Positions 7,555-62,116 of a DNA stretch of 64,000 nucleotides are shown piece after piece. The stretch lies in contig NC_043012.1 of NCBI RefSeq assembly GCF_006345805.1, positions 5,890,001 through 5,954,000 on the forward strand, read 5' to 3'. The notes under the pieces are model-generated. The model saw only the letters and a list, made by a program, of their open reading frames with translations. It was not told the origin of the DNA and ran no database searches. The position numbers and the translations under genes are program-made. Each line of letters opens with the position of its first letter. Within the stretch, counting starts at the first letter, position 1. This DNA comes from Octopus sinensis. Lineage: Eukaryota.

Positions 7555-9420
7555 ATATAAATAAATAAATGGAGTTAAATGCAGGTGTTATTCAAATTCT
7601 TTTACTTCTGACATATGTTTCGAAGACAACATTGGTATTATTCCAAAGGAATAAAATGGTGTAAAACAATGTAATCTTCTCATCAGGGAAAGAAAGAAAT
7701 AAACCAAACTCATCAATAAAACATTTTAACAGAATGTGATGGATGTGTATAATGATGAACGGAACGTTTTTTAGGTTTTTTTAAAAAAAACGTTAGAAGA
7801 TATAACGTCAAAAGTAGCCTATAGAAAGAGAAGGGGTAAAGGAAAGAAATAAACAGAAAACTAATGAATGAGAAATGTAGAGCGATATGTGAATTAGATA
7901 AAAACTTAAAGGCTTGGAAAAAGATATATCTGGTGGAAGTGAATTGTAAGAAGAAAATCAATGTTCAAATTATATAGAATGGTAGATATCACATATATAA
8001 ACAAAAGGTATGTTTCTGCCAACTCTCTATAGCTGTGTTTACAAGGGGATTCTTGGAAAGTAGAATAGAAAATAGTTCACAGAGTTGACAGAATTCTTTG
8101 CCTTTATCACATGAGAATGAAATGGAGAGAATCAACCAATCAAAATTGAATTGTTTATTATGGTCTTTTAGATACCAAATTAATTTACTAAGCCCTGTAC
8201 CGTTGCATTTATTACTATCCCTAAATGTAGAGTAATGAGTAGAAATTCTTTTAGCTAACTGAAAACTACCTATATAAGAAGACATTGGTACCTGAAGTAA
8301 TTTTACACTGTTATAAGGAGTTTTTAATCTTAGAATTACTAGACATAGACTTAATTCTGTTGGAATTGACTTCAGAGACAATATCCTTGTTATTAATGTT
8401 TCTAGGGGGATGGTTAGTATTAGCTAAATTAATGTTAGTATTAGTAATTGGATTCTTATTTAACAGACTAATATTATGTGAGGAGATAATTTGTGAGAGA
8501 TATTTTGTGTTGGAAAAACCAATCCTAACTGTGTGTGAGTTGATAATCAAGTAATACCTAGAATTCTTTGGAAAATTCCTAATAATGGCTTCCCGAAACT
8601 GGAAAGGAAGATTAGATTTAATTTGCCTCCCATAAGGAATAATCAACCAAATAGTTTTGTTATTAATTGCCTTATGTTTAGTGTAACTATCTTTAAAAGA
8701 CATTGATTTACCTTTAGAATGAAAAAAGGTGTTGGTGTATAAATTAAAATTGAAATCGTTCATATCGTTACAACTAGATTTCATGTCTCCATTACTAAAG
8801 GTAGAATAAGATTGAATAGAATTAATGTAGGTAACTTTTTCTGTATAGCCTGCTTTAAATAAGGCAGAGTTATAAAATTCAGCCTTGTTGTTGAAAATGT
8901 CAACATTAACAGATAACTTAGACAATCTAAATGAAATATAACTAAGTTCTTTGTGATTGCCCTAGGATGATTACTGAATTGGCTAATATACTTAAGATTT
9001 GATGGTTTGTGGTATGGGAAGTACGAATTATTGTGTAAGTTAAGTGTAATATCTAAAAAGTTGGCTTTTGTTACATCATCATCAAAAACAATGCCTAAAC
9101 TCATTCTACGGAAAAACTTAACTAAACCATTCTTAACCTTTTGTACTTTTTGGTTAGAAACATTTTGAAGGATCACGATACAGACCTCCATTGATACTTG
9201 GGAACTGGTCTGTCATTTCATAAAGTATATATATACCGACCAAATCAGGTATTTGTGCTGAATCAGAACTTCCTATCATGACATCAAAACCATTGGGTGT
9301 ATCTTTACAGACCCACAGCTTGTTATCAAGTTTTATGATAGATTTTCTGGTGGCCAACACGACATTAATCTCTTCCCTGGTGAGACCAGCTGTGTTGTGA
9401 GCTAGACAGAGTGCTTTTAT
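7555..9420 (-). mobile_element. Penelope-like retroelement (Naiad-like), 5'-truncated and frameshifted
   Basis: Minus-strand peptides ATRKSII...WVCKD, FDVMIGSSDSAQIPDLVGIYIL, GLYRD, NFLDITLNL..YFPYHKP, SNHP (PLE RT); SL*QC..YIG, KRISTHYSTF, TGLSKLIWYLKD, CQLC (GIY-YIG); HHR in the 3' region; TA runs at both ends. Confidence 0.9.
7604..7695 (-). ncRNA. Type I hammerhead ribozyme in the PLE 3' region (pLTR)
   Basis: CUGAUGA-GAAGA..long hairpin..UCUUC-GAAAC-AUAU-GUC; palindromic stem III ACAUAUGU; stem I imperfect. Confidence 0.8.
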
Positions 9421-9439
9421 TATATATATATTATATATA

Positions 9440-13462: not shown

Positions 13463-14228
13463 GCAAGTTCTGGCTATGGCTGTGCAATGTGGGAAAGTAA
13501 CCTTTACCATTCGACGGCGGCGACGGCGAGCTGCTCCACCACCTGTTCCCCCTGAAAGACAATCCTCGATGCCAGAATCAGTCTCACAGTATAGTGTCAA
13601 GGGACAGTCGCACTACTCGTCAACTTCAGCCACTAGTCTTCCGCATGACGAGTCTCCCGGCTGCTACGACAATGGTGCCTACGATGACTCGGGTATGTTC
13701 ATGGGTGAGGCTGGCTCCTGTGATGACGTCTTCACGGAGTCAATGACAAGTAGCCAAGTGTCTTCAGCGTCAAAATTCCCAAGTCTTTCCAGCAGTACCC
13801 TGCAAGGGACAACATACTCACCGAACACGTTGCGCCACAAGCGCAGTGGCCTGCTACTGTCTTACAACGAGGATCCTTACTCAGTCGACAAAATTAGAAC
13901 GCAGAGCACATCGGCCGTGGAGGATGAGGTGAACTGGAACTCTTCACCTACCCCGACCACCATCACGTCGGCGACTCTGCGTTCGGGCCGCGGCACGCCT
14001 TCTAGTTGCCTGTCGCAGTCCCTCGACAATCTCGGCGAAAATGCTTACATCTCTAACCTACGTAGCATGTCTAGTAGGGAGAACATCTACATGCACACAT
14101 ACGATAAGGGGAACAATACTGACCGTAAAGTAAATCTTAGGAAACGAGAGTTTGACTGTGCACTCTCCCCTGGGAACAATATGTATTTACCACGGAGTGT
14201 GATGTCTTCACCCACAGTTCAAGGAAAA
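13463..14228 (+). CDS. Large coding exon of a host gene: probable end of a PDZ-like domain (QVLAMAVQCGKVTFTIRRRR), then PxxPxR motif and a long Ser/Thr-rich disordered region
   Basis: Acceptor ttttctattttcag at 13449-13462, donor gtaagt at 14229; open frame of ~255 codons; GC/CpG-rich against AT-rich flanks; PDZ assignment rests on motif resemblance only. Confidence 0.8.
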
Positions 14229-15964: not shown

Positions 15965-16540
15965 GGTGTGTGTGTATGTGTGTATATAAATATGTACAGA
16001 AGTGTGTGTGTGTATGTATATATATATATACAGGCAATTTTAATTTGTTTACACACACATACATGTGCGTGTGAGTGTGTGTTCACACACACGCACATAC
16101 ATATATATCTTTGTTGTTGCTTAGCAGTTAATGACTCCACAGTACAACCATTACGCAGAATTGCATAGACACAACATGTACACATGTCTGAATTCTTCAG
16201 ACATCTACTGAGAGTTTGAAGAAATAGGCTTGTGTTTGTGTCTCCATGGGCCTCAGTAATGGCCATAGTAGGTATTAATTACTAACCTGTGTTGTGTGTA
16301 TATATACATATGTATGTGTGCATGTGTGTGTATATATATATGTGTGTGTGTATGTATACACACACACATACAGGTGATATTGAGTATATGTTCTATTCTT
16401 CACGCACTTGAATATGTGTGTTATGTGATCATCATAATCATCATCACTGTTTTATTGTCCACATTCCATGCTTGCATGGATGAGAGGGAATTTGCCGTGA
16501 TAGATAATTTAATGGTCAGATGTTCTTCTTGTTGCCAACC

Positions 16541-16988
16541 AAGAACCGCACGGTTCTTGGTCTCAAGAATTTGTCTTATGAAGAAAGGCTGAAGACGCTC
16601 GACCTTTATTCTCTAGAAAAACGACGACGCCATGAAGATCTCATTCTTGCTCCCAACATCATAAGCGGAAAGTGTAACCTCTCGAAAGAGCTGTTCTTCA
16701 CTCCTGCTCCAGAGCGTCAGCTGCGGGGTCATTCCGAAAAGCTCTATCTGCGACGGTTTCATCTCAATCGAAGGAGAGGGGCTTTCTCCGTCTGGGTTGC
16801 GGATTTGTGGAATAAGCTGCCAGACGAGATGGTGAAGATGCCGACGACCGCTCGGTTCAAAGTCTCTCTTGACCTCAAGTGGCCTGAACTCTTTACATGA
16901 ACACCACCCTGTACATAACTCCATGTCCCCCTACATGACCTTGCTTTTTGCTTTTTGAGCCAAAAAATTAACTAACTAACTAACTAAC
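16541..16988 (+). mobile_element. CR1-clade LINE 3' fragment with (TAAC)n tail, inserted into an older SINE-like repeat (~16428-17125)
   Basis: LSYEERLKTLDLYSLEKRR..DLI, LRGHSEKL, FSVWVADLWNKLP match the CR1 ORF2 C-terminus; tail taactaactaac. Confidence 0.92.
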
Positions 16989-21444: not shown

Positions 21445-21896
21445 AGTTAGAATAAAAAAAAAAGGAAATTGAGATAATAAAGTTAATAATTGTTTATTAT
21501 TAACAAATTGGTCATCTTCACTTTTTACAACCGTTTCAATTAATACCCAATAATCAAATTACAAATTTGTACATTAAGTTTGCATTTTTATGAGATGAGA
21601 GCATAATTTCATCAGAGAAAAAAAAAAAGATGTCCACTGGAATGTTATATGTGGACCTGTCAATTCATATCAGCAGACTGAATTGACAGGTCCACATATA
21701 ACATTCCAGTGGACATCTTTTTTTTTCCTCTGAATTATGCTCTCATCTCATAAAAATGCAAACTTAATGTACAAATTTGTAATTTGATTATTGGGTATTA
21801 ATTGAAACAGCTGTAAAAAGTGAAGATGACCAATTTGTTAATAATAAACAATTATTAACTTTATTATCTCAATTTCCTTTTTTTTCTTTTCTAACT
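21445..21896. mobile_element. Fold-back palindrome 1 with outward-facing hammerhead motifs
   Basis: Near-identical arms 21445-21667 and 21679-21896, 11-nt loop TATCAGCAGAC; TA-rich flanks. Confidence 0.95.
21521..21620 (-). ncRNA. Type I hammerhead motif with extended stem II (left arm)
   Basis: CUGAUGA-AAUUAUGCUC...GGGUAUUAAUU-GAAAC-GGUU-GUA-AAAAG; the right-arm copy (21725-21820, +) has palindromic ACAGCUGU but a deleted core. Confidence 0.7.
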
Positions 21897-24897: not shown

Positions 24898-25097
24898 AAT
24901 GTGACCGCGTGTGTACCGTTGGCGATTTTTTTCCCTCTGTCTTCCCTTCTCTGGATCTTTCCTTTTCCTATGTTTCTGACGAAGAGCTCCGCTCGAAACG
25001 CTAAACCCTCCTTCTTCCCTTCCTTCCTGAGTGTCCAATAATACTTTATTTGTTCCACATCCTCGCGTTGTTGTGTTTTCATGTTTGGATTAACTAT
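24898..25097 (+). mobile_element. ~200-bp mini-element with a minimal hammerhead motif (24972-25006)
   Basis: GUUU-CUGACGA-A-GAGC UCC GCUC-GAAAC-GCU-AAAC; inserted in (TA)n; same layout as 22921-23116. Confidence 0.7.
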
Positions 25098-26750: not shown

Positions 26751-28108
26751 TAATTCCTCAACTACTGTGGGTGTTATGTATGTTCCAATAGGTGAAAATC
26801 TGCGAAGTAGAAACAGTACTGTATATATATATATATTTTTATTTCATTTATAATTTGTATATATTTATTTTATTATAAATGCAAAACAACAGCATGGAGG
26901 AATCAACATAAGCTTAAATAATAAGGCACGATAGGTGAACCGTGATGTGGCAAAGGATTACTGTATGTATATATTACCAACCACATACACCTAATGTAGA
27001 TGCTTCATGTCTTTGCTGGTAGGCTGCAATTTGGTACAGTGGAGCATACTTTCCCAAAGCACCGCATGTTAAAACACCTGAGATAACTCCCCCCCTAATT
27101 CCATTTAGGAGTGATTGACCTCGGTGTTTCACCATTTTTGTGGCTTGTCAGTATCACATACTTGAACAGGGTCAGAGATGAACCAATTTGTCAGTCCACG
27201 ACTTCCCTGCACTTGGCATGCAAACCACGTGCAGCTGTGCCTGGACAATGGATACGTAAGAATAAATTCAAACATGATGTAGAAGTAACTCTAGTGTAAT
27301 TAACATCACCACAACATATGCATAACATATATACTTTATGTATTTGCTGGCAAGCTGAGATTTGGCATGGAGGAGTATACTCTCTCAAAGTGCTGGATGT
27401 TATCTTTGTATGTGTGTGTGTGTATGCTTGAGTGTGAGTGTCCCCTTGTCTTACCATTGTGTGATAGTTGTAATGAGCATCACTACTGTAGCGGTACTCA
27501 TTGTTTCAAATCCTTCATGAAAACATGTCTCACTCAGAAACAGGTAAAGGTTGGTGATTGGAAAGGCACCAGCCTGTAGAAAATCTGCTTTAACATATTC
27601 CTTCCAACCATGCGAGTGTTCAGAAGTCTACCTGAAAACAATAACAATATATGTGTGTATATATGTTTGTCTATGCACATAAATGTCAAACGTCTCTACA
27701 GGCTAAAACGGTTGGTTTTAGGAAGAGAAAACTGTGACAAAATAAAATGTATGAAGCATAATTTTTGCATATATGTGTGTCGCTGTGTGGTAAGAAGCTT
27801 GTCTCCCAACCACATAGTTGCGGGTTCAATCCCACTGCATGACACTTTGGGCAAACATCTTCGAGGAAAGGTTAAGTCGATTATATCAACCTCAGTGCTC
27901 AGCTTGTACTTATTTTATCGACCCTGAAAGGTTGAAAGGCAAAGTCGACCTCAACAGTATTTAAACTCACAACATAAAGAGGGATGAAATGCCACAAAGC
28001 ATTATACCCAGCATGCTAAGAATTCTGCCAGCTCGCTGCCTTTTGGGAATTGTTAAATATTGGCTTTTGGCTCACCCTTCTGTGTGTGTGTGTATTTATG
28101 TATATATA

Positions 28109-28159
<51 letters not shown>

Positions 28160-29512
28160 ACACAGTAATTCCTCAACTACTGTGGGTGTTATGTATGTTC
28201 CAATAGGTGAAAATCTGCGAAGTAGAAACAGTACTGTATATATATATATATTTTTATTTCATTTATAATTTGTATATATTTATTTTATTATAAATGCAAA
28301 ACAACAGCATGGAGGAATCAACATAAGCTTAAATAATAAGGCACGATAGGTGAACCGTGATGTGGCAAAGGATTACTGTATGTATATATTACCAACCACA
28401 TACACCTAATGTAGATGCTTCATGTCTTTGCTGGTAGGCTGCAATTTGGTACAGTGGAGCATACTTTCCCAAAGCACCGCATGTTAAAACACCTGAGATA
28501 ACTCCCCCCCTAATTCCATTTAGGAGTGATTGACCTCGGTGTTTCACCATTTTTGTGGCTTGTCAGTATCACATACTTGAACAGGGTCAGAGATGAACCA
28601 ATTTGTCAGTCCACGACTTCCCTGCACTTGGCATGCAAACCACGTGCAGCTGTGCCTGGACAATGGATACGTAAGAATAAATTCAAACATGATGTAGAAG
28701 TAACTCTAGTGTAATTAACATCACCAACAACATATGCATAACATATATACTTTATGTATTTGCTGGCAAGCTGAGATTTGGCATGGAGGAGTATACTCTC
28801 TCAAAGTGCTGGATGTTATCTTTGTATGTGTGTGTGTGTATGCTTGAGTGCGAGTGTCCCCTTGTCTTACCATTGTGTGATAGTTGTAAATGAGCATCAC
28901 TACTGTAAGCGGTACTCATTGTTTCAAATCCTTCATGAAAACATGTCTCACTCAGAAACAGGTAAAGGTTGGTGATTGGAAAGGCACCAGCCTGTAGAAA
29001 ATCTGCTTTAACATATTCCTTCCAACCATGCGAGTGTTCAGAAGTCTACCTGAAAACAATAACAATATATGTGTGTATATATGTTTGTCTATGCACATAA
29101 ATGTCAAACGTCTCTACAGGCTAAAACGGTTGGTTTTAGGAAGAGAAAACTGTGACAAAATAAAATGTATGAAGCATAATTTTTGCATATATGTGTGTCG
29201 CTGTGTGGTAAGAAGCTTGTCTCCCAACCACATAGTTGCGGGTTCAATCCCACTGCATGACACTTTGGGCAAACATCTTCGAGGAAAGGTTAAGTCGATT
29301 ATATCAACCTCAGTGCTCAGCTGTACTTATTTTATCGACCCTGAAAGGTTGAAAGGCAAAGTCGACCTCAACAGTATTTAAACTCACAACATAAGAGGGA
29401 TGAAATGCCACAAAGCATTATACCCAGCATGCTAAGAATTCTGCCAGCTCGCTGCCTTTTGGGAATTGTTAAATATTGGCTTTTGGCTCACCCTTCTGTG
29501 TGTGTGTGTATT

Positions 29513-31777: not shown

Positions 31778-32620
31778 GGCGTAGGAGTGGCTGTGTGGTA
31801 AGTAGTTTGCTTACCAACCACACGGTTCCGGGTTCAGTCCCATTGCATGGCATCTTGGGCAAGTGTCTTCTACTACAGCCTCGTGACGACCAAAGCTTTG
31901 TGAGTGGATTTGGTAGACGGAAACTGAAAGAAGCCCGTCGTATATATATATATATATATGTTGTATGTCTTGACAACCGATGCTGGTGTGTTTACGTCCC
32001 TGTAACTTAGCGGTTCGGCAAAATAGACTGATAGAATAAGTACTAGGCTTACAAAGAATAAGTCCTGGGGTCGATTTGCTCGACTAAAGGCGGTGCTCCA
32101 GCATGGCCGCAGGCAAATGACTGAAACAAGTAAAAGAATATGCATATATGTGTGTGTATTCTTTTATGTTTCAGCCTTGTGGCTGCGGCCATGCTGGGGC
32201 AGAATATATATATATATATATATATACTTGTTTGCATCAATAGACACACACATGGATCTTTTATCTTTTACTTGTTTCAGTCATCATGCTGGGGTATATC
32301 ACCTTGAATTTTAGTCGAACGAATCGTCTTCCAGTGTTTTTTTTTAAATTTTAAACCTGGTACTTAGAGTAGCGTTTTCTTTTGCCGAACCGCTAAGTTA
32401 CGAGGACGTAAATACATCACCACCGCTTGTCAAACAGTGGTGGGGACAGACACAGACATAAAGATACGGCGGGCTTCTTTCAGTTTCCGTCTACCAAATC
32501 TATTCGCAAAGCTTTTGTCGGCCCGAAGCTATAGTAGAAAATACTTGCCCAAGGTGCCACTCAAAGGGACCGAACCCGGAACCATGTGTTTGGCAAACTA
32601 ACTTCTTACCACACAGCCAC
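31778..32620. mobile_element. Inverted SINE A pair (+31778-32138, -32260-32620)
   Basis: Two near-complete copies facing each other. Confidence 0.88.
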
Positions 32621-34228: not shown

Positions 34229-35854
34229 TTACTCGCTCTTTTACTCTAATAAGCTTTTTACTTTTTTTTCTGTGACCCATTCTCTTACTTCACCTCTTCC
34301 TCTTCACGTCACAGCCCGTTCTTGTTCCTTGAATTTTAGTCCTTCTCCTTCACTTTAGCAGTCTTTCTCACCATTTTATTTTCTGCTCTCTCTCTTTCTC
34401 TCACACACACACACTCCTTCAATTTAGTTCTCTTTCAAATATTTTCCTTAGTTTTTTTTTCTCTTACAAATACTTCAATTTAGTTACCACTTTCACAAAT
34501 TTTCTTCAGTTTCTCTCTCTGTCCCTCACACACACACACACATGCATTACCCATTTTCTCTCACACACACACTTTCCCTCAGTTTTGCGTTATATTTTCT
34601 TACTACAACTGTTCCATCTACATTTTCTCTCCTTTCGTTACTGCCCCCTCTTTTGCTCGCTTCTCTCTTTCACTATGCTATTTTCAATATTATACCCATT
34701 TCTTTTCTTTCTTCACTTCATCGTCTTCTCTTACAGACACGCACGCTCTCTCTCTCTCTTTCCCCCTCTCTCCTCTCCTCTCTCTCTCTCTCTGCCTTAA
34801 TTTAATTTCCTTCCACTTGTTTCGGTTTTTGACACATTTCCGCTTCGTCTCTCATCTCTCTCTCTCTCTTTCTCTGTGGAAATGTCTTACGTGACCCAAA
34901 TTGACCTGAACGAATGACCAAATTGTTCTGTAGCGAATAACACGACTTCTGCAGACGATGTATGTGATGTATTTGATTTGATTTGAATAAATATCTCTAT
35001 CTAGAAACTTCTAAACATACTCATCGCTTTCAGTATACATACAAGTCACTATCGCTCTACATTTCGGTGAGTAGTTCGTAACCACATGGTTCCACAAGTG
35101 TCTTCTGCTATCGGCCCGGGCTGACCAAAGTCTTGTGAGTGGATTTAGTTGGTGGTTACTGAAAGAAATCCGTCGTGTGTGTGTGTGTTACTACTATTGT
35201 TTGAGACAACCGGTGTTGCTTTGTTTTTGTCTCAGCAGTCTGGCGTCAGAAACCGAGAGAATAAGTACCAGTTTTTCTTTTCTTTTTTTTCGTTTTGTTT
35301 CTTCTTTCTAATAACTGGTGTCGATTCGTTCGACTGAAAATCCATCAAAGCGGCGGCTCAGCATAGCCGCAGTCCAATGACTGAAACAAGTAAAAGATAA
35401 AAAAATAAAAGATAGTGAGGTGGGGGGGAGGTAACAGAAATGACTAACGTAGATATGTGAGCATATCAAACGTACTGCAACAAACTTCTGACTAAAGATG
35501 TAACAGCTGTGACCACACTTTATCTCTAGGTGTGTGTGTGTTTGTGTGTGTAACTTATGTAGTAGATGTGTAAACGGCTAATTCAGCTGTTCCTCCGTAG
35601 ACTGAAAAAGTCGTGAACAGTATTTACGGATTTTCGAATCTTATTGAGTTCTCATCAGAAATGTCTTCATCAATTTGATTAATCACAGAAAAACAAGCAA
35701 CCACTCTTAATATATGCTCAATAATTCCAGTAGCCACAGAGAACTATCCTCCTTATTTAGTCTGAAAGGAAAGCGGATATGTGCTGCAGCAAACTTTTGA
35801 TTAAACTCTATCGGTTTGACTGATTTTCGACCTGGCTTTCGGTGTTTGGCTGTC

Positions 35855-35898
35855 TGTTGCTGATGATCCGAAACACGGTGAAATCACGTGATACAATA
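35855..35898 (+). ncRNA. Type I hammerhead ribozyme, nearly canonical
   Basis: UGUUG-CUGAUGA-UCCG AAACA CGGU-GAAA-UCACGUGA-UA-CAAUA; palindromic stem III, stem I UGUUG/CAAUA. Confidence 0.75.
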
Positions 35899-39129: not shown

Positions 39130-40218
39130 TATTTTAGCCTATTTATCAGTAAGACTGACCACCGTGCTTGTGACAGTTTCTTAGTTTTTATTCGTAATTT
39201 AATCGAAAATTCGGTCCAGCAATTGAAGTTATTGCTTCACATGGAAGTGAATACCTCTCCAGGTACTGGATTAGTTAATAACGACTTGTTCGGTTAATGC
39301 GCGATTCCGTTACTACCTGATACTTATTCTGTCTGGTTGCCGGCCACCTCTATCTCTGGTGTGTTCGACACCACCAGTGATGTCATTTACGTATACGATG
39401 AGGTCTTTCGTATTCCATTTCAAGAGGGATGCACTTCAACACCAGCTTTCGCATCACGCGTTCGGTCTGTCATCCTTGACACATCAAATACGTGATTCAG
39501 AACTGTTCTGATAAGTGGGCGTTTGATTTGACTACCGAACAGATACTGTTGTACACTGGAGCGATTCCGTCTCTGAAACTGGCCCCGAAACGGCCCTTGG
39601 GATCATACAGCGATCATACAGCGAAGGCCGAACCAGCCCAAGTTCTTTAGCTTAATTAAAATTGATCAGTGCCTTACCGAAGTCAGATCTATTCACGACC
39701 CGCTCCGCGATTTATTGCATGAAGTGGAGGTTGTCTTGGATAGATAACCTCCACCTTATAATGGTGTATCATAGATTTGTCAGAGATCGAACAGGTTTGT
39801 GTCTGACAATTAACAAACGCTAATTTCATGTCGAGTATATTTACTCTTTCCTTAGCTCTGTACTGAGCAGAGTTATGAGCTTAAAATTGTCTTTATTTGG
39901 TTTGCCAGATTCTTGATGTCAGTTTGTGTGATGAAATAAGTTTTGTTGTGTCTTAGGAGAATCGTTCTGCCAATAATATCAACATATGCACAGGTTCAAT
40001 TCCACTTCTTTATTATTATTATTAGTCAATTAGTTAAATATCAAACCGACTAAATAATCAATCGTCTGTTTAATTTACTGGTTAAACAATCAATCGGTTG
40101 TTTGTCGTTCAAAGTTCTTTCGTTGCTGTTCGCAACCTTTTCAGTGACCTGTGACTCTCTACTCGCCGTAACACGTTAAACAAATGATCGATTAGTTGGT
40201 CAGATATTTAACTAATTG

Positions 40219-40254
<36 letters not shown>

Positions 40255-49894: not shown

Positions 49895-50123
49895 GTTTAA
49901 GAGAATATAAGAAATTGTTGGCATTTCAGATATTTTGTTACATATATTTCAGTTATCTGTAATTGAATTTTATAACTGGTCGTATTATCAGATGACAATA
50001 TCAAAACAATTTGCTATCATCTGATGATGATATGATCAGTAATTGATTTAATTATTGATTATTGAAATGTATGCAATGAAGTATCTGAAATATCCATAAT
50101 TTATTTTCTGTTCTTCTTTGAAC
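49895..50123. mobile_element. Fold-back palindrome 3 (old, CpG-decayed) with outward-facing hammerhead relics
   Basis: Diverged arms around spacer 49997-50015; + 50017-50079 UCAU-CUGAUGA..13-bp hairpin..GAAA UGUAUG CA-AUGA; - 49935-49995 UCAU-CUGAUAA..GAAA UAUAUG UA. Confidence 0.7.
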
Positions 50124-51639: not shown

Positions 51640-52040
51640 CAGGCCTGGCTGTGAGGTAAGAAGCTTGCTTACCAACCACATAGTTCCGGGTTCAGTCTCA
51701 CTGTGGGACTTGCCCTTGGGCAAGTGTCTTTTACTATAGCCTTCAACTGACCAAAGCCTTGTGAGTGGATTTGGTAGATGGAAACTGAAAGAAGCCTGTC
51801 ATATATATATATTATATATCTGTATATATTTGTGTGTCTTTGTGTTTGTCCCTCTCCCATTGCTTGACAACTGATGTTGGTGTGTTTATGTCCCCACGAC
51901 TTAGCAGTTTGGCAAAAGAGACAGATTGAATAAGTATCAGGGTTACAAAGAATAAGTTCTAGGGTCAATTTCTTAGACTAAAACCTTCTTAGGGTGGTGC
52001 TCCAGCATGGCCACAGTCAAATGACTGAAACAAATGAAAA
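51640..52040 (+). mobile_element. SINE family A
   Basis: Full motifs. Confidence 0.86.
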
Positions 52041-52078
52041 GAAAAATGAGAAAGACATGTAATGTGTATTAGAAAATT

Positions 52079-52495
52079 CATCATCATCATCATCATCCGC
52101 TTTCCATGCTGGCATGGGTTGGACGGTTTGACTGAGGACTGGCGAACCAGAGGGCTGCGCCAGGCTCCAATCTGATCTGGCAGAGTTTCTTCAGCTGGAT
52201 GCCCTTCGTAACGCCAACCACTCCGAGAGTGTAGTGGGTGCTTTTAAAGGCCAGTCTGGCGGTACTGGCAACAGCCACGCTCGAAAAAATGGTGTTTTTT
52301 ATGTGCCACCTGCACAGGAGTCAGTCCAGCAGCACTGGCAACGACCTTGCTCGAATGTTTTGTTCACGTGCCACCGGTACAAGTGCCCGTGAGGCGACGC
52401 TGACAACGATCACGCTCATGGTGCTCTTTACATGCCAGACAGCTGCTCTGGCAGTGATCCTGCTTGGATGGAGCTGTTAGTGCTCCACTGGTGTG
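52079..52495 (-). mobile_element. SINE-like family C
   Basis: (cat)n tail and GTGCCAC subrepeats. Confidence 0.85.
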
Positions 52496-52561
52496 GGTAC
52501 TTTTAAATCTCACAACATGAGACATTCAGCAACAGTACTTTGTAGTAAAGATTGTTTGCCA

Positions 52562-52939
52562 ACATAACATGGCAGTCCTGGTCTAGGACGAACGTTGCTG
52601 TAATTTAGCCCCAGGAGACATTGTCTCCAGCTGGCTATATGACACTATCTGTGTCCTTATTTTCAAACAAGGGAATCTAGCACCCCCACTCAGCTCAAAA
52701 CAAAATCTGTGTATTGCAATTTCCATGTTATTTCCCTTCATCAGCACAGAATAATTGTTCTGCTGAAGAGAAATAACCCAGAAATCGCGATACACAGATA
52801 TTCTTTTGAGCTGAGTGGGGGTGCTAGGTTCCCTTGTTCCAAAATATAAGGATACAGATTGTGTTGTATAGCCAGCTGGAGACGATTTCTCCTGGGGCTA
52901 AATTATAGCAGCATTCGTCCTAGGACTGCCATGTAATGT
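52562..52939. mobile_element. Fold-back palindrome 4 with outward-facing hammerheads at the axis
   Basis: Arms meet at AGAA(T)AATTGTTCT (axis 52754/52755); - 52708-52748 UGUG-CUGAUGA-AGGG AAAUAA CAUG-GAAA UUGCAA UA-CACA; + 52761-52796 CUGAAGAG AAAUAA CCCA-GAAA UCGCGA UA-CACA. Confidence 0.92.
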
Positions 52940-53142
52940 GTGTGTGTGTGTATATAATCTGGGATTACTTACTATAAGGCTAGTTAGAGGGAAGTACTCA
53001 AGGTATTAACACTTCATATGAACATATTAATTGTTGTCCCTACCAACAATTAATATGTATGTACTAGTTGCCAATTGTGTTACATTGCTAAACTTAAGCA
53101 ATGTGCTCGTGGATGGTTAATGGCATGGATTGATACTGAAAT

Positions 53143-53315
53143 ATACTCTTTTACTTGTTTCAGTCATTTGACTGTGGCCATGCTGGAGCACCGGGACTTA
53201 TTCTTTGTAAGCCTAGTACTTATTCTATTGGTCTCTTTTACCGAACCGCTAAGTTACGGGGACGTAAACACACCAGCATCGTTTGGTGGGAACAAACGCA
53301 AACACATAAACACAA

Positions 53316-53388
<73 letters not shown>

Positions 53389-53554
53389 TACGACGGGCTT
53401 CTTTCAGTTTCCGTCTACCAAATCTACTCACAAGGCTTTGGTCAGCCTGAGGCTCTAGTAGAAGACACTTGCCCAAGGTGCCACGCAGTGGGAACGAACC
53501 CGGAAGCATGTGGTTGGTAAGCAAGATACTTACCACACAGCCATTCCTGCGCCT
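53143..53554 (-). mobile_element. SINE family A
   Basis: Full reverse-complement copy. Confidence 0.9.
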
Positions 53555-61318: not shown

Positions 61319-62116
61319 GATATATACACGTATTTGGAAAACAGGCGAGGGTTGACAACAGGAAGAACATCCGGCCGTAAAATCCTGCCTCTGATAAAGA
61401 TATGAAGAGAGGGTTGTGTTGGAAATTCTGAAAATATTACCGAATCCAGCATACACCTGACGAAAGCAAGAGGGTACCATACCCCAAGCTTTGTTTATTA
61501 AAACAAAGACGAAGGCACTAATCTAAATACATAAGTGTATTTCTATTTTATAAAAGCTAATATAAATAAAGGCTGGTTGGTTAGTCGGTTGGTTTTTCAA
61601 GTCACGCTTTACACCGTAGAGAGAGAGAGAGGGGTAATGGGAAGGTGCAGAGACTGTTAAGAGGTGCATGATGAGCGCACATAGTAGGCTTGACGGCAGG
61701 CAATGAATAAAAAGCACGCCCTCCCCTTCATACACATGCCACAGTAAGAGAGAGTCATAGTCTGAGGAGGAGAAGAATAAGGGACAGAGGAATAGATATC
61801 TTTCTCTTGAAAATTAGTATTGTTTTTTATCATTTTGTATAAACTCAAAAAAGTTGGAAAAAAGTTAAATTACAACAATTATGTTTGCCACATGTCAAAA
61901 GTATACTTCGAAGTTCCCCGTCAAAATGACCCGTCACTTCAGTATTGACTCTTCTCCATCTCGAAAGTCGTGCCTGTATATATTTGTATATGAATATGTA
62001 TATTTGTTTATGCGTACACTTCTGTGTGTGTCTTCGTGCGAATGCTCGTGTAGTCTACTGTGTATATATGTATGTATGTGTATATAATTATTGAATGGCA
62101 CTTCTACATGCAAGAT

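Follow-up and report, generated by a model that had tools for sequence, protein, structure and literature searches.

Penelope-like elements (PLEs) provide the closest described counterparts of the locus analysed here. According to the available parts of Cervera and de la Pena 2014 (PMC4209133), the flanking repeats of PLEs contain type I hammerheads with a palindromic helix III, which show low activity and need to form dimers, and dual minimal hammerheads are found on opposite strands, 100-700 bp apart; a palindromic stem III of 8-10 nt appears there in Fig. S3 for the PLE hammerheads of D. willistoni and Aedes. Next to the 5' end of a PLE there is often an inverted copy that is itself 5'-truncated, as drawn in the scheme of Fig. 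2 in the accessible portion of Craig et al. 2021 (PMC8557442). In File S2 of the same study, likewise seen in part, the element Penelope-13_HM bears a hammerhead on both strands, owing to its adjacent inverted 5' copy. In Adineta, the Penelope pseudo-LTRs (pLTRs) measure 181-218 bp, the inverted pLTR overlaps the direct one by 15 bp, palindromes of 18-38 bp occupy the pLTR 5' ends, and the head-to-head arrangement, read as a product of self-priming, is the commonest type of inversion (Arkhipova et al. 2013, PMC3846280, available sections). From the biochemical side, the protein of an anole PLE cuts and extends both DNA strands and uses uncleaved RNA as its dominant insertion substrate; reverse transcription begins a short way downstream of the hammerhead, and the ORF of this element starts inside the hammerhead (Frangieh et al. 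2024, PMC11167929, available sections). These portions of PMC3846280 and PMC11167929 do not settle whether the head-to-head junction of PLEs comes from self-priming on an antisense template or from priming on both cut strands. Additionally, a preprint that was available in part (bioRxiv 10.64898/2026.07.22.740005) proposes non-autonomous, hammerhead-bearing PLE derivatives for animals. In octopus, PLEs make up 6.83% of the O. vulgaris genome and fall into 190 families.

The locus presented here is a short fold-back in a window of 64,000 nucleotides, this being the whole stretch of DNA that was analysed. It is built like an inverted pair of PLE pLTRs, is neither an autonomous PLE nor a retrozyme, and carries a hammerhead motif in each arm, neither of which is complete. 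It is likely to represent a decayed head-to-head pair of PLE pLTRs that arose from a single insertion and has decayed neutrally since.

The fold-back and its host locus

The window is Octopus DNA. The frame at 13463-14228 (plus strand) shares 100% identity with PTPN13-like PDZ proteins from Octopus vulgaris and O. sinensis (81% with Argonauta) and forms a single large exon bounded by AG and GT. No other exons of the PTPN13-like protein were found in the window by tblastn, and 7-residue words gave two isolated stray matches. Since no further exon of this protein was detected in the window, the fold-back probably lies within a plus-strand intron of at least 49.7 kb. Its main features and those of its ends are the following, the orientation being set by the strand of the hammerhead in each arm:

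52562-52939, both strands: the whole fold-back, 378 bp, two copies of a unit of about 190 bp placed head to head, with their 5' ends at the axis and their 3' ends outermost.
52562-52754, minus strand: left arm, 193 bp, delimited by alignment, likely a PLE pLTR or 3'-terminal fragment, reading away from the axis.
52755-52939, plus strand: right arm, 185 bp, the second copy, with about 20 substitutions and small indels relative to the left arm.
52747-52762, both strands: junction palindrome, 7/8 Watson-Crick pairs, centred between 52754 and 52755 and placed 4 nt upstream of the left stem I.
52614-52634, both strands: small internal hairpin and 8-nt palindrome of the left arm, with a right-arm counterpart at 52872-52892, within a predicted stem-loop 3' of the ribozyme.
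52565-52567 and again 52934-52936, plus strand: TAA trinucleotide, either a possible 3-bp target duplication, if the element were a MITE, or one substitution within the arms.
52936-52956, plus strand: (TG)n followed by a short TA run, abutting the right end, which blurs the exact right boundary; a likely insertion target.

The inverted repeat occupies the exact span of a minus-strand self-BLAST match (83% over 386 columns). Of the 190 columns in the alignment of the two arms, 159 match, 23 mismatch and 8 contain gaps, which corresponds to 87% identity over 182 aligned columns. The plus-strand RNA is predicted to form a hairpin with an MFE of -268.3 kcal/mol and a z of -28.5, a stability reached by 0/100 shuffles. 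The BLAST span, the arm alignment and the hairpin thus confirm the fold-back that the initial annotation had placed at these positions.

Two registers of the axis are conceivable. In the loop-less register, the centre lies between 52754 and 52755 and two deletions, of 2 nt and 3 nt, are required in short repeats of the right arm, while the ungapped register, centred on 52752, leaves a loop of 5-7 nt and entails three substitutions. Among four gap-penalty settings, two favoured the loop-less register, one the looped register, and one produced a tie. Preference is given to the loop-less register, since it also accounts for the 6-bp stem I. The palindrome, which had been described as loop-less, merits this term in the first register but not in the ungapped one. 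Internal mini-palindromes, also part of the earlier description, are only partly borne out: there is a hairpin at 52614-52628, but the second sequence is palindromic only over the 8 nt of CCAGCTGG (52627-52634, and 52872-52879 in the right arm). A separate 10-nt palindrome occurs at 52917-52926, near the outer end of the right arm, and a 5-nt insertion interrupts its left-arm counterpart.

BLAST of the element against the 64-kb window returned only the element itself, with no second copy, and no direct (head-to-tail) copy of the unit occurs in the window. The left end, where no microsatellite is present, is preceded by about 120 bp (52438-52561) that have no match in the window and could hold a PLE tail (30-40 bp, optional); further to the left, a dispersed repeat of another kind extends up to about 52437. 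PLEs insert into AT-rich or microsatellite DNA and often leave no clear target duplication; at the ends of this fold-back, none of more than 3 nt was found. Other repeats of the window include internally repeated units, at 25.1-26.6 kb, of the same dispersed repeat that flanks the fold-back on the left, and long local duplications at 26.6-29.6 kb, in which the frames 27304-27927 and 28752-29381 are near-identical. To the right of the element, at a distance of 80 bp, there is a separate AT-rich hairpin of 37 bp (53022-53058). The 130-codon frame at 16508-16900 (plus strand), which has no match in Pfam, presumably resembles the C-terminal end of a CR1/L2-type LINE ORF2.

Regarding coding content, the element contains no autonomous PLE frame (RT plus GIY-YIG); the longest frame across it has 104 aa and no relevant Pfam match. 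A 52-codon frame that starts from an ATG in the left hammerhead core was rejected as a candidate, as it is broken in the right arm, unremarkable by chance and matched in Pfam only by an irrelevant entry (E 0.047). The interval 52000-53500 contains no tRNA gene. GTDB genomes contained no exact match to a 20-nt key, which is not surprising for animal DNA, and the single phage record retrieved by BLAST (37 nt, E 9e-3) was judged a chance match. Full-text searches of the literature brought up no publication describing this octopus element; the family may be contained in the Zenodo repeat library of O. vulgaris (PMC13282606) or in the supplements of the retrozyme preprint.

The hammerhead motifs and their decay

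The two motifs lie on opposite strands, and both point outward from the axis:

52706-52750, minus strand: left type I hammerhead, with a 6-bp stem I, an intact core, the GGG of stem II kept and its partner decayed, GAA, and a palindromic stem III.
52756-52798, plus strand: right type I hammerhead, with the CCC of stem II kept and with damage to the 5' strand of stem I and to the junction between core and stem II.

Their proximity to the axis is as previously noted (about 10 nt), since the left core begins 10 nt away and the right core 8 nt. The CUGAUGA-AGGG string attributed to the left arm is found on the minus strand at 52744-52734, where the core CTGATGA (52744-52738) is followed by A and GGG (52737-52734) and then by a 6-nt loop. 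Stem I, for which a 4-bp UGUG/CACA pairing had been claimed, is present in this arm and is longer, with 6 bp formed by 52750-52745 and 52711-52706. The left stem III is a perfect 8-nt palindrome (52720-52713) followed by N17, which is A, at 52712. In the right motif, the CCC expected for stem II is found at 52777-52779 of the plus strand, followed by GAA at 52781-52783, the palindrome ATCGCGAT at 52784-52791 and N17, again A, at 52792. The 3' half of the right motif equals that of the left motif with the CCC intact, while its 5' half has been damaged either by two short deletions or by three substitutions, depending on the axis register. The conserved core (CUGANGA ... GAAA ... UH) is closed by stem I in both arms, with 5/5 of the tested pairs in the left arm and 4/5 in the right arm. 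Stem II is reduced to 1 bp in each arm alone, that is, it is broken. The right-arm palindrome, proposed as the donor of stem III, is present, but the left arm has a perfect 8-nt palindrome too and therefore no defect for the right arm to repair.

Four motifs in the window (both arms, 35860 and 7686, the latter two described below) satisfy a rule that combines an exact core, a perfect palindrome of at least 6 nt and at least 4/5 stem I pairs. In 1,651 dinucleotide-shuffled windows, it is satisfied 0.009 times on average and at most once; the rule was written after the motif had been seen and the two arms are not independent, while the margins are wide. Rfam, including RF00163 and clan CL00010, gave 0 matches at gathering score over the whole window and no hammerhead up to E 10 over 52300-53200 (901 nt). 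On a 68-nt stretch of the right arm, Hammerhead_1 matched partially with 11.7 bits (gathering 34) and an E of 2.8. Sixteen further Rfam matches in 52300-53200 (E of at most 10; 14 microRNA-precursor and 2 small-RNA models) fell below gathering and were discarded as generic matches to a long hairpin.

According to the initial annotation, the arms complement each other's defects and merge into a complete type I hammerhead. The real alignment of the arms satisfies a merged-allele descriptor that is met by 6/94,870 column shuffles, and by 0 if the palindrome is to be at least 6 nt, with the same reservations on post hoc wording and dependent arms, and the same wide margins, as for the rule above. 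A mix of left and right alleles folds stems I and II in the monomer in RNA folding predictions. In the homodimer of this mix (MFE -29.5 kcal/mol), both stems form within the chains and an 8-bp stem III forms between them. Nevertheless, the word complete overstates the case, given that none of the 64 allele mixes pairs at 10.1-11.1, either directly or with a 5' bulge alone, and that nothing reaches the Rfam gathering score. A 3-bp stem II occurs in 16/64 mixes, only with an unpaired purine on each side. The data support the descent of both arms from a single type I hammerhead, of which the pooled alleles give a plausible ancestor.

Functional complementation finds no support. The motifs being on opposite strands, one transcript holds one motif plus the antisense of the other, and so no complementation can take place in one RNA. 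Furthermore, the sense motif is predicted to be buried in the hairpin: in the plus-strand RNA, the right-arm motif has a mean pairing probability of 0.83 to the left arm and of 0.00 to itself. Differences between the arms affect 8/41 of the ribozyme columns and 15/141 of the remaining columns (Fisher p 0.18), so the ribozyme is no better conserved than the rest and shows no sign of selection. Six of the changes between the arms are of the CpG type, and the difference between the two stems III is due to two of these, CG-to-TG and CG-to-CA, which are typical of CpG decay. In a decay model, two identical copies change independently by about 5.3% per arm, and 25-42 sites are taken as essential. 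Damage then reaches both arms in 56-81% of cases, and in 89-93% the arms have no damaged essential site in common. Apparent complementation is therefore the default outcome for once-identical copies that decay neutrally. The element is predicted to be inert as a ribozyme at present. Taken as a whole, the earlier interpretation was right about the common hammerhead ancestor and not about functional complementation, and it did not name a Penelope-like origin.

Other PLE traces, hammerheads and fold-backs in the window

Further loci of the window bear on the class to which the fold-back belongs:

About 8040-9430, minus strand: decayed RT and endonuclease frame, with relatives of about 710-760 aa that have Hydra-clade motifs.
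7612-7692 (7686), minus strand: type I hammerhead about 300 nt 3' of the RT frame, with a 58-nt domain II on a 6-bp base stem and an 8-nt palindromic stem III.
35854-35898 (35860), plus strand: intact-looking type I hammerhead, with 5/5 stem I pairs, a U-U mismatch, a 3-bp stem II, a 10-nt perfect palindrome and A as N17.
24970-25008, plus strand: minimal PLE-type hammerhead with a 5' bulge and a 4-bp stem II, damaged at stem III/the cleavage triplet and preceded by a (TA)n run.
61756-61820, plus strand: weak hammerhead candidate with an exact core, a 7-bp purine-rich stem II, a 4-nt palindrome and a poor stem I; it may be due to chance.
21445-21896: young fold-back, rich in AT and 94% self-complementary around a centre of about 10 nt, located beside (TA)n; its axis has no hammerhead.
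49909-50105, 32094-32201 and 40010-40235: further inverted repeats, diverged or short.

A HMMER search with an 80-residue piece of the frame at 8040-9430 yielded 951 relatives (E of at most 0.001), and 8 of the 150 matches listed (951 in all) were mapped back to the frame by tblastn. Four relatives of 709-759 aa each cover the frame in four collinear pieces, and the same four present DKT, GLYRDDG and a C-terminal, CxxC-containing endonuclease-like domain, together with Y(I/V)G in 3/4 of them. DKT, GLYRDDG and these endonuclease-domain features are those given for the Hydra clade in the available sections of Craig et al. 2021 (PMC8557442). Pfam contained nothing relevant for the four pieces of the frame or for 8/8 relatives, and two word-seeded protein searches with the frame found no relatives.

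From its sequence, the 35860 motif, which is sense to the putative host intron, is the window's best candidate for a live ribozyme; its Rfam HH9 match scores 15.9 bits (E 0.086). Alignment of the arm with the 3' region of the window's Hydra remnant was no better than with shuffles (124/300 as good), and the same applies to the 35860 locus (32/300 as good). As the 7686 and 35860 loci share no detectable homology with the arms beyond the motif, they indicate the class of the element and not its family. None of the four other fold-backs of the window has a hammerhead near its axis (0/4), and two show only a bare match to the 7-nt core. The inverted repeat at 32094-32201 consists of two facing SINE-like ends, and that at 40010-40235 has a spacer of about 100 nt and (TAA)n flanks.

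Origin of the fold-back and comparison with known systems

A PLE origin is likely on the grounds of motif shape, position and layout, as opposed to sequence homology. Published PLE biology suggests how the pair could have formed. In the parent RNA, about 185 nt would have separated the hammerhead from the 3' end, and the palindromic stem III of this hammerhead would have been able to pair two RNA molecules. A PLE reverse transcriptase/GIY-YIG endonuclease, acting in trans, may have cut beside the microsatellite and copied the last 190 nt or so of the RNA, which would have been uncleaved because the copy passes the cleavage site (52712/52792) and extends to 4 nt upstream of stem I. The same event would also have produced the inverted second copy, at the short palindrome of the junction: either the first copy folded back and primed itself, as proposed by Arkhipova, or cDNAs were primed on both cut strands and annealed through their self-complementary ends, an option that is put forward here. 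The two routes are indistinguishable in the present data. Presumably identical at insertion, the arms would since have drifted by about 5-6% each, and both ribozymes would have been killed in different places; it is this difference in damage that makes their merging look like complementation. If the host intron is transcribed, the sense motif would be hidden in a long RNA hairpin, which might serve as a substrate for A-to-I editing. Several observations speak against a PLE reading: the searches revealed no coding PLE linked to it by sequence, the inverted pLTRs of the Adineta examples enclose an ORF, so that a pair lacking one has to be extrapolated from them, no target duplication exceeds 3 nt and the symmetric TAA fits a DNA transposon, and the purine mismatch at the foot of stem II and the (TG)n flank also count against it.

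Among the other explanations that were weighed, a non-autonomous palindromic PLE derivative, in which the whole fold-back of about 380 bp is copied as a unit with its axis fixed 4 nt upstream of stem I, would account for an axis that lies nearly at the ribozyme boundary and has its own palindrome, for arms that end at the same point and for the lack of any ORF remnant, and it could draw on the hammerhead-bearing derivatives proposed for animals in the available part of bioRxiv 10.64898/2026.07.22.740005. It is nonetheless improbable, given that there is a single copy in 64 kb, that a self-complementary transcript would bury its own ribozyme, that ordinary pLTR 5' ends already predict a fixed palindromic junction (PMC3846280, available sections) and that retrozymes, in the sources accessible in part, are arranged head to tail and not head to head. 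The symmetric position of TAA (52565-52567 and 52934-52936) around a palindrome of 366 bp would be expected of a Tourist/Harbinger-type MITE with long terminal inverted repeats, a TAA target duplication and a hammerhead captured in its arms. Elements of the Tourist/Harbinger superfamily possess terminal inverted repeats and a 3-bp TWA target duplication, and their MITEs occur as many uniform copies that have their termini in common with a transposase element. Fully palindromic Harbinger repeats are known in Xenopus, as stated in the accessible part of PMC5625713. Against a MITE, the inverted match runs 3 bp past TAA on both sides, a 3-bp match is expected by chance among the 169 offset pairs tried, the anatomy of the motif and its distance from the end are of the PLE type, and the two papers that a full-text search listed for MITEs together with hammerhead ribozymes and terminal inverted repeats both concern plants; this origin is accordingly regarded as very unlikely.

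The duplication could also be later than the insertion, if a PLE fragment was first inserted and then duplicated in inverted orientation by template switching during replication or by repair, without reverse transcription. The four other short fold-backs of the window, whose axes lack a hammerhead, suggest that duplications or elements able to form hairpins occur commonly in this genome, yet neither end of the duplication includes flanking DNA, and PLE insertion routinely yields inverted 5' copies (PMC8557442 and PMC3846280, available sections), which leaves little probability, of the order of a few in a hundred cases at best, for such a history. Next to no credence is given to a functional split ribozyme, in which each arm would supply the parts missing from the other and selection would keep one active hammerhead. 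The pooled alleles do yield a foldable motif and stem III is palindromic in both arms despite two changes, but the strands are opposite, the sense motif is locked in the hairpin, the ribozyme has no excess of conservation, and the double change follows the CG-to-TG plus CG-to-CA pattern of CpG decay. A decayed pLTR pair from one insertion is thus the preferred reading.

By itself, the element is of limited consequence, being another decayed PLE terminus in a genome with about 7% PLE DNA. With its purines at the stem II foot, it extends the range of octopus hammerheads by one variant, and it lends itself well to teaching, since its two arms sample one ancestral ribozyme twice. Long intronic hairpins of this kind might contribute to the very high level of A-to-I editing in octopus. 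A broader, rather doubtful idea is that octopus harbours non-autonomous Penelope derivatives that form a family of their own, short and palindromic throughout, and that transpose as a fold-back of fixed form, about 380 bp long, whose invariant axis lies 4 nt upstream of the hammerhead. If this were true, the axis would mark the exact place where reverse transcription of PLEs turns back on itself or where twin cDNAs come together, the transcript of each strand would carry one ribozyme and dimerise via the 8-bp palindrome, intronic copies would constitute ready-made long double-stranded RNA for cephalopod A-to-I editing, and thousands of junctions would make the mechanism of PLE inversion directly testable.

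Compared with the minimal PLE hammerheads in the available parts of PMC4209133, the motifs described here share the core, an extra base after position 9 and a palindromic helix III that is predicted to dimerise. Unlike the pairs on opposite strands reported there, the two cores are only about 20 bp apart, and the 3-bp stem II, with its extra 3' purine, departs from the consensus of G10.1-C11.1 plus a 5' bulge alone.

The resemblance to Hydra-clade PLE hammerheads extends to the type I topology, the 8-nt palindromic stem III, the unpaired base on each side of the short foot of stem II and the A at N17. In our own count of the Hydra-clade rows of PMC8557442 File S2, in its available part, a near-palindromic stem III of 3-4 bp followed by N17 is present in 26/26, and a mismatch at the foot of stem II in 15/26, comprising 14 U-U, 1 U-C and 0 A-A or A-G. 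The mismatch of the octopus element, A with A or G, therefore differs from the U-U that predominates in the clade; its stem III is a perfect even palindrome, in contrast to centres of 1-3 nt in the clade; and its flank is (TG)n with a short TA run, whereas Hydra-clade elements prefer (TA)n. From stem I to the outer ends there are 189 nt in the left arm and 184 nt in the right arm, compared with 67-405 nt (median 121) to the 3' end in 24 Hydra-clade families from the available part of the file, a count that left out Penelope-18_HMa and the antisense row of Penelope-13_HM, which are not 3'-terminal. The motif listed for Hydra-1_Obim of Octopus bimaculoides has no sequence match to the element, and the supplement text of Craig et al. 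2021, in which long runs are shortened, contained 0 exact matches for two 14-nt arm keys, the right stem III key and the left core key.

The layout comes closest to that of Pen2, Pen2a and Pen3a of Adineta vaga, with arms of 185-193 bp against 181-218 bp, a head-to-head arrangement, a type I hammerhead in the repeat and a junction palindrome or overlap of 16 bp against 15-38 bp. Unlike the Adineta elements, the octopus pair has no ORF or direct pLTR between or beside its arms, no target duplication of 8-10 bp was found at its ends and both ribozymes have decayed. With non-LTR retrozymes it shares a short, non-coding sequence, a type I hammerhead and a probable derivation from PLEs, but retrozymes are head-to-tail tandems with ribozymes on the same strand, whereas a single inverted pair with ribozymes on opposite strands is found here. 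The element is real, non-random and well explained by known biology, and its inverted-pair layout has already been described in other animals.
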